From: Candidatus Saccharimonadales bacterium
GTDB taxonomy: Bacteria > Patescibacteriota > Saccharimonadia > Saccharimonadales > UBA4665
Direction: 5' to 3'
Assembly (NCBI GenBank): GCA_036526215.1
Contig: DATCYV010000112.1
Coordinates: 1-29,592, forward strand
DNA: 29,592 nt
In this document: positions 23,139 to 29,592 of the stretch, piece by piece
Layout: each line of letters starts with the position of its first letter
Position numbering within the stretch: position 1 is the first letter of the stretch
Made by a program: the position numbers and the translations under genes
Notes under the pieces: generated by a model
What the model saw: only the letters and a program-made list of their open reading frames with translations
Database searches by the model: none
What the model was told of the DNA's origin: nothing

Positions 23139-24158
23139 ATGTTCCGGTCGGCTCGGCTTAAGCTGACGCTCTTTTATTTGGGGATTATCGTTTTGTTCAA
23201 CCTCATGGTGACTATGAGCGTGCGCGTGTATGCCGAACACGAATTTTTGCGAGCGAATACCGAGCAGCGGTCTGAAGTGCGCCAGTGGGTAGTTCAGTTT
23301 TTTGAGGCCCAGATTGGCAAGCGACCAGAGAACGCCATTAATACCATCCAGGATAACCAGGTAGAGCAGGTACGCCGACATTTAAATGACGGCTTGCTCA
23401 TCATCAATCTTGGGGCGCTCGCCATTGGTGGTATCTTGAGCTACTGGTTTGCCGGGCGGACACTGCGTCCCATCGAAGAAGCGCACGAGGCGCAGGCACG
23501 GTTTACGGCGGATGCTAGTCACGAATTGCGAACACCGCTTGCTAACATGCGGCTTGAAAATGAGGTATTTCTGCGCCAAAAACACTTTACTGAAGACGAA
23601 GCACGCGAGCAGTTGATCAGTAACTTAGAGGAGATCCAGCGCTTAGAGCGGCTATCTGGCAATTTGCTTGCACTGCACCAATATGGGCAAGTATCGCTCA
23701 CGCGTATGCCAGCAAACGTGCGGTCGATAATAGACACATCAATTAACCCTTTGCAGGCTGTGGCGCGCACCAAAAATGTGCACATTGAACTTCAAATTGA
23801 TCCAGCCAGAGTACTCGTGCACCACGACAGTATAGTTCAGCTGCTGAATATATTGCTTGATAACGCACTGAAATACGGCGCGACGGGCGGTGAAGTGCTA
23901 CTACAGGGTAAGAAGCGCGGTGGTGTCTATCTGCTAGCGGTGAAGGATAAAGGCCCGGGTATTGCAGCCGGCGATTTGCCACATATTTTTAACCGCCTGT
24001 ACAGGGGAGACAAAGCGCGCTCGGCCAAAGTTGCCGGGTATGGCTTGGGCCTGGCTTTAGCCAAAGAGATCGCCGAGGCAAATAGCGCCACACTGACAGC
24101 TTGCAATAACCAGGGTGGCGGGGCGTGCTTTGAGCTTGGTCTGACACTTGCAGTATAA
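23139..24158 (+). CDS. Membrane sensor histidine kinase (HisKA + HATPase)
   Basis: Two TMs, ADASHELRTPL, LLDNALKY, DKGPGI, GYGLGLAL; start moved to MFRSA. Confidence 0.93.
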   Translation: MFRSARLKLTLFYLGIIVLFNLMVTMSVRVYAEHEFLRANTEQRSEVRQWVVQFFEAQIGKRPENAINTIQDNQVEQVRRHLNDGLLIINLGALAIGGILSYWFAGRTLRPIEEAHEAQARFTADASHELRTPLANMRLENEVFLRQKHFTEDEAREQLISNLEEIQRLERLSGNLLALHQYGQVSLTRMPANVRSIIDTSINPLQAVARTKNVHIELQIDPARVLVHHDSIVQLLNILLDNALKYGATGGEVLLQGKKRGGVYLLAVKDKGPGIAAGDLPHIFNRLYRGDKARSAKVAGYGLGLALAKEIAEANSATLTACNNQGGGACFELGLTLAV

Positions 24159-24165
24159 TAAGAGT

Positions 24166-24846
24166 ATGCAGCGGTTTTTCTTGTCTGCGCGCGTGAGGAT
24201 TTACCTTGTGTTGGGAGCGTCCAGCCTTGTTAGTGTTGGACTGTTTTTGTTGGATGCCTGGAAGAATCACAGCTATGAGTTCAGCTACCTTATATGGAAT
24301 TTAACACTAGCCTGGGTTTCTTTGCTGGCTACGCTCTGGCTCGAGGGTGTCTTGCTTCGACGGCTTTGGTCGAGCTGGTATGCGATGTTCGTAACGGCGG
24401 TGTGGCTGGTATTCTTGCCGAACACCTTCTACATGATCAGCGATTTTATTCATATACAAACGCTCGGGCAAACGGACGTACTCTATGGTGTGGTGATGTT
24501 CACGTCATTCATCATCAACGGTGTCATGCTGGGATTTTTGAGTCTATTTATTGTGCATCAGGAATTGCTCAAGCGTTTGCGATCCAGGCAGGCTGGTGGC
24601 TTAATTGCTCTGGTGGTGCTCATCTGTAGTTTCGCAATTTATATCGGACGCGAGTTGCGTTGGAATACTTGGGATCTTATTACGAATCCTGCGTCAGTAT
24701 TAATTGACGTCTCGGACCGTGTGTTAAACCCGCGAGAACACCCGCAGGCGCTGACGACGACGACTAGCTTTTTTGTACTGCTCATGTCGCTGTATGCTGT
24801 CTTTTGGTACAGTACTCGCTTGAGCCGCATCAAGCCGCGTGATTAG
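24166..24846 (+). CDS. DUF1361-like membrane protein
   Basis: YLIWNLTLAW, WLVFLPNTFYMISDFIH, IYIGRELRWNTWD; start moved to MQRFF, 6 nt after TATAAT. Confidence 0.8.
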   Translation: MQRFFLSARVRIYLVLGASSLVSVGLFLLDAWKNHSYEFSYLIWNLTLAWVSLLATLWLEGVLLRRLWSSWYAMFVTAVWLVFLPNTFYMISDFIHIQTLGQTDVLYGVVMFTSFIINGVMLGFLSLFIVHQELLKRLRSRQAGGLIALVVLICSFAIYIGRELRWNTWDLITNPASVLIDVSDRVLNPREHPQALTTTTSFFVLLMSLYAVFWYSTRLSRIKPRD

Positions 24847-24853
24847 TGCGTGT

Positions 24854-24891
24854 CCCCCCCCTTGCGGGGGGGGGCTATATTGCCCTACAAT
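24854..24891 (+). promoter_or_regulatory. Putative promoter containing C8 and G9 homopolymers
   Basis: C8-TTGC-G9; TTGCGG (24862-24867)-N18-TACAAT (24886-24891) upstream of CDS 24960. Confidence 0.5.
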
Positions 24892-24959
24892 AACCACTAG
24901 CATATAGAGCACCCTGAGCCCAAACCAGGAAACCATAGTAGAAGGAGTAAACCAACACC

Positions 24960-26561
24960 ATGTCACGACTACCAACCCCCGGCCAAGACAACGGCACCTG
25001 GGGCAGTATCCTCAATGACTACCTAGCCCAAGCCCACAACACTGACGGCAGCCTCAAACCCGGCTCAGTCGGTGCTGCCCACATCCAAGACGGTGTCCTG
25101 CCCAAAACTAAGCTCGATACAGCCACCCAGGCTTCACTTACCAAAGCAGACGGATCCCTGCAGGCAGCCAATAACCTGAGTGATGTAGCTACACCAGCTA
25201 CGGCCAGGACAAACCTCGGGCTGGGGACAGCCGCAACAATGACTCCCGCAACCCTTGCGGCAGATACGGCGTTTAGTGGGACGTATGCCACCAAGAAAGC
25301 GGTCGCCCTCGGGCGGATCATGCGCGGTAGGAGCGTCCTCGACGCATACCCGAACGTCATGGCTAGCCCTCCAGCGATCACGTTCTCTGCAACCACGGGG
25401 ATCAGCCCGAACTACGACTACCAGCCCGACGAGTCCAGCCGCCTGACGATCCTCCAGGCCAACACGGCATGGAACGACCCGTCCGGTTTCCAGTACAACA
25501 CCTGGAGCATCTACCAGGAGTGGGGCGTCGAGTTCGACATCAACACCGGGGCTGCGACGGCCGTCGAGGTGAAGTGGCGGTGCTCGTCGAGCAACTCCGA
25601 GAAGTTCTGGGTGTGGCTCGACGGTGCTCCCACAACGGCATGGTTCGTGGCTCCGGGGGCACTGTCAACCACCGCTGGCAGCACGTACTACATGAACATC
25701 CCTGTGAGTGCAGGACAGCGTCGGATCAAGGTGCTGTGGATCAACGCCTCCTTCCGAGGGATCCGGGCGGCGCCGGGATGCTCTGTGCAGAAGACTCCAC
25801 CTCCGCCCTACCGGATCGCCGTCGTCGGGGACTCCTACATCGATGGCGGTTACTTGTCGCTGGCCAACAGCGACTGCATCGGCCCGCACCTGGCCGCCCT
25901 ACTGGGCGGTGATGTCGCTCTGTTCGGAACCGCCGGATCCGGGTACGTTGCAGGTTCCAACACGTTCGGCTCTGCCACTCGCGTTTCGGCCGTTCAGACG
26001 TTCAACCCGGATGCCGTCATCATTTACGGGTCGATCAATGACGATTCCTTGGCTGCATCAGTGCAGGCCGCAGCAACGGCGGCATTTGCCGCCTACCAGG
26101 TCGCCTTACCGAACGTTCCGATCTACGTGATCGGGCCGCAGCAGACCGCGGCAAACACAACGCTGGCCGCGAACCGGGCCGCGAACACCGCCGCCGTCAA
26201 GGCCGCTGCGCTGGCCGCCCCGAACGTGATCGGCTGGGACGACCCCTGCGGCGGGTACCTGGCGTCCACGCCTGCCTACGCTGGCGGCGCCAACTACGCG
26301 GTCGGCGACCTGGTCACCTACCAGGGTGGGGTCTACCAGTGCACGCAGACGGTGAGCAATGCTGGCGGCTCGATGAACCACGGGTCGTTCAACCGCACCT
26401 CATGGCTGTTCGGTACCGGCTACTCGGGGGCAACGGCCGGAGACGGAGATCGTGACATCGCGGTGGGGACCGATCAGATTCACCCTTCGGCGGCAGGATC
26501 GCTGATCCTCGCCCGGAAGATCGCCACGGACTTCCTGACCACGATCCGCGGACTGCTCTAA
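24960..26561 (+). CDS. SGNH/GDSL hydrolase with tail-fibre-like linker and inserted CBM5/12-like module
   Basis: GDSY, GTAGSGY, GSIND and DQIHP SGNH blocks; ANNLSDV..ARTNLGLG; YAVGDLVTYQGGVYQC; AGAAGGAG upstream. Confidence 0.85.
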   Translation: MSRLPTPGQDNGTWGSILNDYLAQAHNTDGSLKPGSVGAAHIQDGVLPKTKLDTATQASLTKADGSLQAANNLSDVATPATARTNLGLGTAATMTPATLAADTAFSGTYATKKAVALGRIMRGRSVLDAYPNVMASPPAITFSATTGISPNYDYQPDESSRLTILQANTAWNDPSGFQYNTWSIYQEWGVEFDINTGAATAVEVKWRCSSSNSEKFWVWLDGAPTTAWFVAPGALSTTAGSTYYMNIPVSAGQRRIKVLWINASFRGIRAAPGCSVQKTPPPPYRIAVVGDSYIDGGYLSLANSDCIGPHLAALLGGDVALFGTAGSGYVAGSNTFGSATRVSAVQTFNPDAVIIYGSINDDSLAASVQAAATAAFAAYQVALPNVPIYVIGPQQTAANTTLAANRAANTAAVKAAALAAPNVIGWDDPCGGYLASTPAYAGGANYAVGDLVTYQGGVYQCTQTVSNAGGSMNHGSFNRTSWLFGTGYSGATAGDGDRDIAVGTDQIHPSAAGSLILARKIATDFLTTIRGLL

Positions 26562-26642
26562 CTCGCCCATAACGGCGGCTAGCTGGCGCTTCGCCAACCA
26601 TCCCCTTGTCGGTGGCAGCAAGCAGCTGTAGAATACAAAACC

Positions 26643-27188
26643 ATGAGCAACTCTCGCAATAAACAGCCCATCGTCTACGCCTTCATTGACAGCCAAAACC
26701 TCAACCTTGGCACTCAAAGCGCTGGCTGGAAACTAGATTTTCGTAAGTTACGCCTGTACCTAAAGAACAAGTATGGTGTGCAGAGAGCGTACCTATTCAT
26801 TGGCCAAATGGCCGGGCAAGAGTCTCTTTACGATCGACTACAGAGTTATGGCTACCACTTGATCCTAAAACCAACCACCGAATACAAGGCTAACGGTCAG
26901 ATTGTGGTGAAGGGCAATGTTGATGCCGAGCTAGTCCTTTGGTCTGCCGCTAAAGTCATAGACGATTATGACAAAGCAATCATCGTAAGCGGGGACGGCG
27001 ATTTCCATTGCCTGGTTGAATATCTCCAAGAGAAAGATAAACTGTTTCACCTTATGGTGCCAAATGACAAATTCTCCAAGCTACTACGTAGGTTCACCAA
27101 GGAAATTGTTAGGACTAACCAACTGCGCAGGAAGTTAGAATATAAGCCAACAAAAAAGACTGGGAGTAGCGGTCGGTCGAAACCTTAG
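26643..27188 (+). CDS. NYN domain (LabA/DUF88, PIN-like) protein
   Basis: FIDSQNL, KGNVDAEL, VSGDGDF; TTGTCG-N17-TAGAAT upstream. Confidence 0.9.
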   Translation: MSNSRNKQPIVYAFIDSQNLNLGTQSAGWKLDFRKLRLYLKNKYGVQRAYLFIGQMAGQESLYDRLQSYGYHLILKPTTEYKANGQIVVKGNVDAELVLWSAAKVIDDYDKAIIVSGDGDFHCLVEYLQEKDKLFHLMVPNDKFSKLLRRFTKEIVRTNQLRRKLEYKPTKKTGSSGRSKP

Positions 27189-27208
27189 GCCTGCCCAGTC
27201 ATGGTGAT
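27152..27208 (-). ncRNA. Predicted 57-nt cis-antisense RNA overlapping the NYN 3' end
   Basis: Own promoter; sequence AUCACCAU-GACUGGG-...-GGU-UUCG-ACC-...-CCCAGUC-UUUUUU. Confidence 0.6.
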
Positions 27209-27214
27209 AGTGGT

Positions 27215-27243
27215 ATTGTAGCCGTTGGTAGTGGTTTTGTCAA
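27215..27243 (-). promoter_or_regulatory. Near-consensus sigma-70 promoter firing antisense into NYN
   Basis: Minus strand TTGACA (27243-27238)-N17-TACAAT (27220-27215). Confidence 0.75.
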
Positions 27244-27393
27244 CCGCTTGTGTGCCAAAGCGGTATATAGCGGCGGCTACATCACCCCTAGGTTAAGCCA
27301 ACCTCTTTGGCGAACCGGACAAGAAACGTCTAGTACTAATGGGGTGCGTCCTTGTAATGTTCTGGGTTTGCAATCTGTTATAATGATGTCACT

Positions 27394-29073
27394 ATGCAAA
27401 CAATACAATCAGCGCTCGAGAGCGTAATTCGGGATGAGTTTGACGTCGACGTCCAGCCCGAGCTTACGCGCCCAGACGAACAGTTTGGGGATTATGCCAC
27501 CAACGTCGCAATGCAATTGGCTGGCCGCTTGCGTCGCTCTCCGCGCGAGGTTGCTGAAGTATTGGTTGCCGCTCTTAAAGAAAAAATGGGCGATCAGGTC
27601 AAGGACGTTACCATCGCTGGCCCTGGCTTTGTGAATATTACGCTCAGCGATGCTTCGCTCGGTGAGCTTGCTTTGCAGGCCCCGACAAACAAGCCTACGA
27701 CATACAAAGGGCAGGTGGTTGTAGCCGAGTACTCTGATCCAAATCCGTTCAAGATTTTGCACGCAGGGCACCTGTATACCAGTGTGGTAGGCTATGCTAT
27801 TGGTAGTTTGCTTGAGGCTGCAGGCGGCGAAGTACACCGCGTAAACTTTGGCGGCGACGTTGGTTTGCATGTGGGCAAAACTATGTGGGCGATGCTCCAG
27901 GACCTCGGCGGTGAACACCCCGAAAAGCTGGCCGATATACCCGAGGCCGAGCGATCAGTCTGGATGGCGGGCTGCTACGTAAAGGGCAACAATGCCTACG
28001 ATGATGACGAAGCCGCCAAGGAGCAAATCGTTGCCCTGAACAAACGCGTGTACCAATTGCATGAGCAAAGTGACCACGATTCGCCGTTTGCGCAAATCTA
28101 TTGGACTTGCCGCCAGTGGAGCTATGAAGCATTTGATGTCTTCTATGACCGTATTGGTACGCCGTTTGAAAAATACTATCCAGAGAGCATATGCGCGCCG
28201 GTTGGTCTTAAAACGGTCCGCGAACACCTTGCCAAAGGGGTGTACGAAGAAAGTGACGGCGCCGTCGTGTTCAAGGGCGAGCCGTATGGTCTGCACACCC
28301 GCGTGTTCATTAACTCCCAGGGCATTCCCACATACGAAGCCAAAGACGTCGGCCTGATTATGCTCAAAAAGCAGGACTACAATTTTGACCGTTCAGTAGT
28401 GATTACCGACAACGGCCAGGGACAGTACATGGCGGTGGTTCTCAAGAGCATTGAACAGTTTGCCCCTGAGCTGACTAAGGCCACGAGCCATCTGACACAT
28501 GGTGTGCTCAAGATGAGGGGCGGCGTCAAGATGAGTTCACGCAAGGGCAACATTCTGCGTGCTGGTGACGTGCTCGATGCCGCGGCTAGTGCCAACCGTC
28601 AGGCCACGGGGCGCGAAGATGAGAGTGCAGTGCTTGGTGCTGTTAAGTATGCCTTTCTTAAACAGCGCATTGGACCGGATATTATTTATGATCCAGAAGA
28701 GTCGGTTAGCCTTGAGGGTAACTCGGGTCCGTACCTGCAATACGCCCACGCCAGGGCGCGGAGCATTTTGACAAAGGCGGCCGCCCAGCCGGTAGCGCGC
28801 ATACATGATTTGCTCGATGGGGGTGAGCGTAGTCTCGCCCGCAAAATCAGCGAATACCCGGAAGTTATTCAAAAAGCTGTCGACGAGATGATGCCACATT
28901 ATGTGTGTACTTATTTGTACGAGTTAGCTCAGGTGTTCAACCGTTTTTATGAGCATAACCGTGTGGTTGGTGATGAGCGAGAGCCGGTGCGTGCTGTGCT
29001 GGTCGGTCTGTACGCCGACGTTCTAAAGGATGGCTTAGGGCTCTTGGGTATTGTCGCGCCCGACCGGATGTAG
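27394..29073 (+). CDS. argS: Arginine--tRNA ligase
   Basis: FGDYATN, GPGFVN, EYSDPNPFKILHAGH, KMSSRKG, GPYLQYAHAR. Confidence 0.96.
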   Translation: MQTIQSALESVIRDEFDVDVQPELTRPDEQFGDYATNVAMQLAGRLRRSPREVAEVLVAALKEKMGDQVKDVTIAGPGFVNITLSDASLGELALQAPTNKPTTYKGQVVVAEYSDPNPFKILHAGHLYTSVVGYAIGSLLEAAGGEVHRVNFGGDVGLHVGKTMWAMLQDLGGEHPEKLADIPEAERSVWMAGCYVKGNNAYDDDEAAKEQIVALNKRVYQLHEQSDHDSPFAQIYWTCRQWSYEAFDVFYDRIGTPFEKYYPESICAPVGLKTVREHLAKGVYEESDGAVVFKGEPYGLHTRVFINSQGIPTYEAKDVGLIMLKKQDYNFDRSVVITDNGQGQYMAVVLKSIEQFAPELTKATSHLTHGVLKMRGGVKMSSRKGNILRAGDVLDAAASANRQATGREDESAVLGAVKYAFLKQRIGPDIIYDPEESVSLEGNSGPYLQYAHARARSILTKAAAQPVARIHDLLDGGERSLARKISEYPEVIQKAVDEMMPHYVCTYLYELAQVFNRFYEHNRVVGDEREPVRAVLVGLYADVLKDGLGLLGIVAPDRM

Positions 29074-29112
29074 CAGAATAAGATAACATAGGGTGGAGTA
29101 GGAGTTAACTGC

Positions 29113-29592
29113 ATGGCAACTACCAAAAGAGCTAAAGATTCAACGGTGGTTCCGGCTAAGAAGCCGGCGAAGTCAGCTAATAAAACGTCTAAAACGTCCT
29201 CTATGGCTGAGCGCGCGCAGGCGGCCGAAGCCCGTGCCGCTAGAGCCGAGAAGGCCTTGGACCGGCTGCGCGAAACAACTTCTGTTCGCAAACAATTCAA
29301 TGGATTTGTTGAGTTTTTGCGTGAACAGAGCGTGGTTGGTCTGGCTATCGGTTTGGTTTTGGGTACCCAAGCCAAAACATTGGTCGACCAACTTGTAACG
29401 AGTTTTATTAACCCGGCTACAGGCTTGCTGCTGCCGGGGCAGGGCACACTGGCGCAAAAGGTAGCGCATGTGCAGTTTAATGGCAAGTCGGCCGTCTTTG
29501 GCTGGGGTGCATTTGTGTACAGTTTGCTTACTTTTGTGATCGTGGCGGCGCTGGTGTACTTTGTTTTTAAGGGCTTGCATCTGGACAGGCTC
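29113..29592 (+). CDS. mscL: Large-conductance mechanosensitive channel MscL-like, partial (runs off window)
   Basis: Manual translation: FVEFLREQSVVGLAIGLVLG...LVTSFINP...WGAFVYSLLTFVIVAALVYF; AGGAG upstream; about 60-aa Lys/Ala-rich N-terminal extension. Confidence 0.85.
   Translation, partial: MATTKRAKDSTVVPAKKPAKSANKTSKTSSMAERAQAAEARAARAEKALDRLRETTSVRKQFNGFVEFLREQSVVGLAIGLVLGTQAKTLVDQLVTSFINPATGLLLPGQGTLAQKVAHVQFNGKSAVFGWGAFVYSLLTFVIVAALVYFVFKGLHLDRL

Follow-up and report, generated by a model that had tools for sequence, protein, structure and literature searches.

A convergent NYN ribonuclease gene and hairpin small RNA form a recurring cassette in Patescibacteria

The window analysed here is the whole 29,592-nt stretch of contig DATCYV010000112.1 (assembly GCA_036526215.1) from a Candidatus Saccharimonadales bacterium. 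Near its right end it contains a gene for a LabA-like NYN ribonuclease. A predicted 57-nt small RNA on the opposite strand overlaps the 3' end of that gene. The small RNA gene is real and is conserved beyond chance. It is specifically tied to one part of the NYN family, and the NYN-RNA pair is a movable cassette that recurs across Patescibacteria. The original prediction, made from the sequence alone, had proposed an RNA-controlled nuclease at this site. The features of the locus are as follows.

26643-27188, plus strand: NYN gene (LabA-like ribonuclease with a PIN-like fold), 181 amino acids, assigned by Pfam PF01936.
26606-26634, plus strand: candidate NYN promoter TTGTCG-17-TAGAAT, 9 of 12 consensus positions; its -10 box stops 8 nt short of the ATG.
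27215-27243, minus strand: small-RNA promoter TTGACA-17-TACAAT, 11 of 12 consensus positions.
27152-27208, minus strand: small RNA of 57 nt, drawn from its fold, the family alignment, and covariation.
27208-27200, minus strand: 5' tail of the small RNA, AUCACCAUG.
27200-27194 paired with 27164-27158, minus strand: helix 1 of the small RNA, 7 bp, GACUGGG/CCCAGUC.
27191-27189 paired with 27170-27168, minus strand: helix 2 of the small RNA, a 3-bp middle helix.
27188-27171, minus strand: invariant 18-nt loop core of the small RNA, CUAAGGUUUCGACCGACC.
27157-27152, minus strand: U6 tail of the small RNA.

The small-RNA promoter is the one named in the original prediction. It is the top-scoring promoter-like site across positions 24000-29592, and the small RNA starts 6 bases past its -10 box. 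The proposed hairpin, with its GACUGGG/CCCAGUC stem, UUCG tetraloop, and U6 run, was reproduced on folding. The fold energy was -17.6 kcal/mol with a z score of -2.9, and 1 of 200 shuffled sequences was as stable. The hairpin contains an inner mini-helix, GGU-UUCG-ACC. On the plus strand the loop core reads GGTCGGTCGAAACCTTAG, which codes for GRSKP and the stop of NYN. The small RNA and the NYN open reading frame (ORF) overlap by 37 nt (27152-27188). The overlap contains 11 sense codons (KKTGSSGRSKP), the TAG stop, and 1 base. It had been put at the last 12 codons and the stop, a count that was one codon off.

Known RNA families were searched for at the same positions. Rfam covariance models gave no match over the small RNA at gathering score across the whole window. 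At E values up to 10 in 27050-27400 they gave none over the small RNA, and the sole weak match lay outside it. ARAGORN found no tRNA or tmRNA at the small RNA. Against the general features of signal recognition particle RNA, 6S RNA, the hammerhead, the tRNA T-arm, and the sarcin-ricin loop, no convincing resemblance emerged. A peptide encoded in the small RNA was rejected by inspection. The AUG of the tail is not kept in every copy, with AUA and ACG also occurring there, and the ensuing frame ranges from 3 to about 19 codons. A search of RNA data sets with 27120-27270 listed none that contains it. Metatranscriptome contigs from one data set span 26423-26786 only, plus a 40-nt piece from a related locus, and are silent on small-RNA expression.

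The protein encoded beside the small RNA matches PF01936 with an E value of 3.4e-17 (63.8 bits; cut-off 24.2), which is its sole Pfam match. Its AlphaFold model has a PIN-like fold with a pLDDT of 89.9 and low confidence in the C-terminal tail (GRSKP). Its earlier naming as an NYN (PIN-like) RNase is thus borne out. The closest structures to the model are 2qip, then the NYN domains of MARF1 and KHNYN, and T5 flap endonuclease. RNA-linked NYN proteins share residues D16, N19, N92, D94, E96, D118, and D120 with a conservation of at least 97%; for D16, D94, D118, and D120 the range is 98-100%. Judged by its conserved residues and model fold, the protein is catalytically intact. It also matches the PADLOC candidate-defence NYN model with an E value of 5e-9. 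At many loci (L048-L166, by eye) a -10-like box lies 6-8 nt ahead of the NYN ATG, without a Shine-Dalgarno sequence. This spacing suggests that NYN mRNAs are leaderless or nearly so. The NYN mRNA is probably leaderless, with a transcription start predicted from sequence.

NYN homologues were first gathered from 61 related small genomes and were found in 55 of them. The closest ones share the 3' element. An exact search for the 18-nt core, with one genome per species, then found it at at least 119 genome loci. The element is thus present at homologous loci. The lineages are Saccharibacteria; Woese-, Gottesman-, Davies-, Levy-, Beckwith-, Blackburn-, and Dojkabacteria; WWE3; and bins labelled otherwise. 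At a higher level they are Saccharibacteria, Microgenomates, Dojkabacteria, and WWE3. Most family members were found with the exact core, and retrieval through NYN gave a smaller sample. The loci retrieved through NYN also hold the core (6 exact, 1 with two changes, and 1 with a one-base insertion).

All copies share one plan. It contains an A-run, stem 1, stem 2, the invariant loop, the complement of an AUCACSAUG tail, and the -10 and -35 boxes of the RNA's strand. The 5' tail AUCACSAUG is conserved across the family. Promoter, hairpin, and U-tract are all conserved in the NYN 3' flanks, where the original prediction had suggested looking for them. A promoter at the matching position scores at least 9 of 12 in 82 of 115 unique copies and at least 10 of 12 in 60. 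In a control of 80 nt inside NYN, 3 of 118 reach 10 of 12. The -10 box mostly ends 26-27 nt ahead of the core. A T-run of at least 4 follows the hairpin in 106 of the 115 unique copies.

The helices also covary. Across 95 aligned sequences, pairing holds in 91% of cells, versus 82% in shuffled alignments (0 of 500 shuffles attain the observed value) and 19-50% with slid partners. Two-sided changes were found at 7 of 7 pairs of helix 1 and at 3 of 4 pairs of helix 2. On the minus strand, G-U pairs outnumber A-C pairs by 31 to 14, or by 19 to 4 when one ambiguous pair is left out. The folded strand is therefore the minus strand.

Several genomes carry two-hairpin versions within one transcript, with two hairpins at most. 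Locus L041 (G007:C10:24528-26539) contains two neighbouring small-RNA units between the end of an NYN-like gene and an NYN gene broken by TGA. A promoter, two invariant-loop hairpins 29-41 nt apart, and a separate terminator make up each unit. A CRISPR-like mini-array of two units with two hairpins each was considered for genome G007 and rejected, as its "repeats" are the same covarying hairpins. The unit-specific promoters and terminators also rule it out, and the upstream gene is NYN-like at its end and so still convergent.

Of the 126 core copies, 98 adjoin a convergent NYN gene. The stop of NYN falls within the core in 67 copies and 1-56 nt ahead of it in 18; in 13 more, NYN continues through the core in a different frame. 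Since the position of the stop and the frame both vary, the core is constrained as nucleic acid and not as the GRSKP codons. The remaining 28 core copies include about 8 at contig ends and about 20 true orphans. NYN is the only widely recurring family among the flanking ORFs (82 loci), and no conserved third gene recurs among them.

A quick maximum-likelihood tree was built from 97 NYN proteins. The RNA-less NYN genes form one clade of 27 on a long stem, with an SH-aLRT value of 99. This clade mostly keeps the active-site residues, and E96 falls to 56%. All other NYN proteins in the tree are RNA-linked save 4 exceptions, of which 1 has a variant RNA. This exception is the second NYN of the present genome (G000:C77:6151-6636), which has a convergent "type 2" variant. 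The type 2 locus is G000:C77:6050-6640 (L032:1297-1864). The type 2 RNA has a 5' tail, AUCACCAAUAG, of the same kind as the canonical one and an apical sequence, AAGGUUUCG. Its hairpin is different, with 11 bp, -26.7 kcal/mol, and a z score of -6.0. Type 2 RNAs were also found at the NYN 3' end in G360, G330, G010, and G282, and in G022 one precedes a canonical copy. In genus g189 (L176-L179, from G161, G127, G159, and G186) a diverged RNA lies about 150 nt past the NYN stop, with nhmmer E values of about 1e-10. Because this RNA lies downstream of NYN, overlap with the coding region is not obligatory.

The pair decays unevenly. In a sample of 401 genomes of the class, 160 have an NYN match at E 1e-20 or better and 61 have the core with up to 2 mismatches. 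The RNA is kept beside a 5'-truncated NYN in G438, G241, and G077, beside a stop-broken NYN in G121, G314, and G097, and beside NYN remnants in G373, G122, and G105. It is kept without any NYN in G116, G076, G188, G288, G304, G399, G436, and G388. Of these, G188, G288, G436, and G388 have no NYN match at E 1e-20 or better. Some orphan RNA copies retain an intact promoter and terminator. Among about 40 best NYN matches, the RNA is at the 3' end of nearly every testable gene. The exceptions among the fetched best matches are the TGA-broken gene of G107 and the RNA-less-clade genes of G299 and G420. An intact NYN of the RNA-linked type is almost never without its RNA. The RNA thus outlives NYN and not the reverse, which is the pattern expected of an antidote. 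Several apparent orphans adjoin NYN remnants, which points to NYN loss and not to independent insertion.

One alternative is that the small RNA, or a mobile RNA element, has an independent function of its own and merely tends to land by NYN. About 20 genome copies and all viral copies lack NYN, and some copies adjoin tRNA genes, yet we hold it to be very improbable. A convergent NYN stands in constant register at 98 of 126 copies, the remaining flanks are variable, and several apparent orphans have NYN remnants beside them.

In the present genome the pair is part of an insertion. The source assembly is 0.78 Mb in 112 contigs and is 75% complete.

24847-27372, no strand: accessory insertion of 2.5 kb, flanked by a membrane-protein gene and the argS promoter and containing a high-GC SGNH/CBM gene, NYN, and the small RNA.

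In 5 same-genus genomes argS is directly downstream of the membrane-protein gene (window 24148-24846). The 2.5-kb insertion is extra relative to these genomes, and the NYN-RNA module is therefore accessory in the genus. In an alignment of the window with G004, homology runs up to 24794 and is back from 27373. The left edge was set just after the membrane-gene stop at 24846. The SGNH/GDSL plus CBM5/12 gene in the insertion has a GC content of 63-66% and a phage-fibre-like N terminus. tRNA genes adjoin some cassettes or orphan hairpins elsewhere (L115, L124, L152 [= G030:C8], and L175), which may hint at integration next to tRNAs.

The core was also retrieved from 9 IMG/VR contigs, of which 7 are distinct (L169-L175). 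No NYN was found within 3 kb of the core in the IMG/VR contigs that carry it. Each viral copy presents the invariant loop on a hairpin with a differing stem. A terminase large-subunit gene is found about 2 kb from one copy, and an Erf-like gene about 1 kb from a second. L171 and L172 retain the AUCACGAUG tail. The L175 hairpin is the one that adjoins a tRNA gene. Searches of GenBank phages and PLSDB plasmids with 27140-27250 gave no match.

With moderate confidence, we interpret the pair as a two-gene module. It would consist of an intact NYN RNase and a dedicated, antitoxin-like antagonist RNA from the opposite strand. The small RNA would run back into the NYN 3' end and stop at its own hairpin and U-run. 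It may act by either of two routes. In route (a) it would be a cis-antisense RNA. Being fully complementary to the 3' end of the NYN mRNA, it could form a duplex of about 57 bp as a target for RNase III, and convergent transcription may add interference. In route (b) the NYN protein would recognise the invariant 18-nt loop directly, with the RNA as a pseudo-substrate or inhibitor. The two routes may coexist. The convergent overlap argues for antisense or interference of a type I-like kind. The invariant loop and the orphan, tandem, and phage copies argue for a conserved partner, for which NYN would be the most economical candidate in a type III-like arrangement.

Several points weigh against this antagonist module. 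The RNA-less sister clade has the same catalytic residues, so such an RNase apparently can exist uncontrolled. The 27 genes of that clade have no recurring partner gene in place of the RNA. Each route also leaves something unneeded: a protein-binding RNA has no need of the convergent geometry, and a cis-antisense RNA has no need of the invariant loop or of orphan and phage copies. The invariance of the loop is partly ascertained, because most members were retrieved with the exact core. The anatomy, conservation, and covariation of the RNA gene, its link to one part of the NYN family, the mobility of the cassette, the uneven decay, and the phage-borne hairpins are observations; transcription of the RNA, negative control, a toxic or defensive role of NYN, and the acting route are inferred.

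A narrower proposal is that the hairpin is a protein-binding antidote. The pair would then be a new class of RNA-protein toxin-antitoxin (TA) or abortive-infection system, with type I geometry and a type III mechanism, specific to Patescibacteria, and the phage copies would be decoys that disarm NYN. We put this forward tentatively, as less likely than not.

The hairpin RNA may instead be the working partner of NYN, as a cofactor, a guide-like or scaffold RNA, or a processed substrate, in a ribonucleoprotein that needs both parts. A loop that is invariant across phylum-level lineages and a conserved AUCACSAUG tail would suit a specific RNA-protein or RNA-RNA contact. The two-hairpin transcripts of several genomes also count in its favour. 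We nevertheless think a working partner unlikely. Genomes such as G188, G288, G436, and G388 keep an orphan RNA although they lack an NYN match at the threshold given above, and phage contigs carry NYN-free hairpins. The tail is conserved, whereas that of a guide would vary. Complementary targets in this genome are not above chance: 11- to 14-mers complementary or identical to the small RNA, counted as trans targets or mimicry, are no commoner than chance predicts, and one 13-mer match was expected and one was found, on contig C63.

Another account needs no TA or defence logic. NYN would be an ordinary RNase without toxicity, and the RNA would be a pure cis-antisense element that tunes how stable the NYN mRNA is or how its 3' end forms. 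The convergent overlap at nearly all NYN-bearing loci favours this account, and it sits well with a near-universal NYN in relatives (55 of 61) and with the existence of an RNA-less clade. It leaves unexplained the invariant loop, the phage copies, and the orphans with intact promoter and terminator. It also leaves unexplained the patchy distribution and the accessory insertion. We regard it as quite improbable.

The antagonist module bears on two poorly described groups. Bacterial LabA-like NYN proteins are abundant, and the pairing with an RNA gives a handle on a group without assigned function (PMC5499597) and on the small RNAs of Saccharibacteria. The RNA partner singles out those NYN genes that are probable conflict or regulatory modules. 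The 18-nt loop is the predicted specific recognition element. The conserved RNA partner also suggests that episymbiotic bacteria and their phages may be engaged in an arms race fought with RNA.

No description of an NYN-RNA module was found in Rfam or in the literature searched, in keeping with the original statement that such a module was not recognised as described for NYN. The domain, fold, and acidic active-site residues match those of LabA-like NYN.COG1432 (2qip). That family is listed as of unknown function and without functional studies (Matelska et al. 2017, PMC5499597). The word "antisense" is absent from the text of this classification of PIN-like domains. According to a TM7x transcriptome preprint, validated small RNAs were still lacking for that Saccharibacterium (10.1101/2022.03.25.485537).

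Among TA systems, VapBC and other PIN-domain toxins are alike in that a small PIN-like RNase belongs to a mobile module of two parts and compact size. The antitoxin of VapC is a protein, encoded upstream in the same direction. By contrast, no upstream protein-antitoxin gene recurs at the NYN-RNA loci.

Type I systems share the geometry. The Bacillus subtilis pairs txpA/RatA and bsrG/SR4 have a convergent 3' overlap (PMC3531473, PMC3834814, PMC4147584). Here too a small RNA with its own promoter is predicted to run towards its partner gene and to cover the 3' end of the mRNA of that gene. It is complementary to the putative toxin mRNA, by geometry alone. RNase III degrades such duplexes in B. 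subtilis, and the present genome also encodes RNase III. The partner is different, as it is a 181-amino-acid soluble NYN RNase and not a small hydrophobic peptide. Nuclease-type exceptions among type I toxins do exist, for example SymE. A further difference is that the loop does not vary between phyla and that orphan and phage copies exist, neither of which is needed for cis-antisense pairing.

Type III systems (ToxIN, CptIN, and TenpIN; PMC5086642) share the components. Both combine an endoribonuclease with a structured RNA, and tandem RNA units occur here occasionally. Binding of the RNA by the RNase in the type III manner is compatible with the invariant loop and with the orphan and phage copies, as far as sequence can tell. 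PhiTE escape phages carry a pseudo-ToxI (PMC3475682), and the nuclease-free look-alike RNAs on phage contigs here resemble it. The viral hairpins may thus parallel phage pseudo-ToxI mimicry. The type III antitoxin is a same-strand, direct-repeat array upstream of the toxin; here the RNA is a single opposite-strand hairpin downstream of NYN, with its own promoter and terminator. The nuclease is NYN/PIN-like and does not belong to the toxin families ToxN, CptN, and TenpN. A plain type I or type III label therefore fits poorly, and the RNA-less sister clade, with its shared catalytic residues, speaks against an inherently toxic NYN. The earlier reading is partly supported: the RNA may act as an antidote or regulator of the nuclease, possibly in a defence module, with which the decay asymmetry, the mobility of the cassette, and the NYN-free phage hairpins are consistent.
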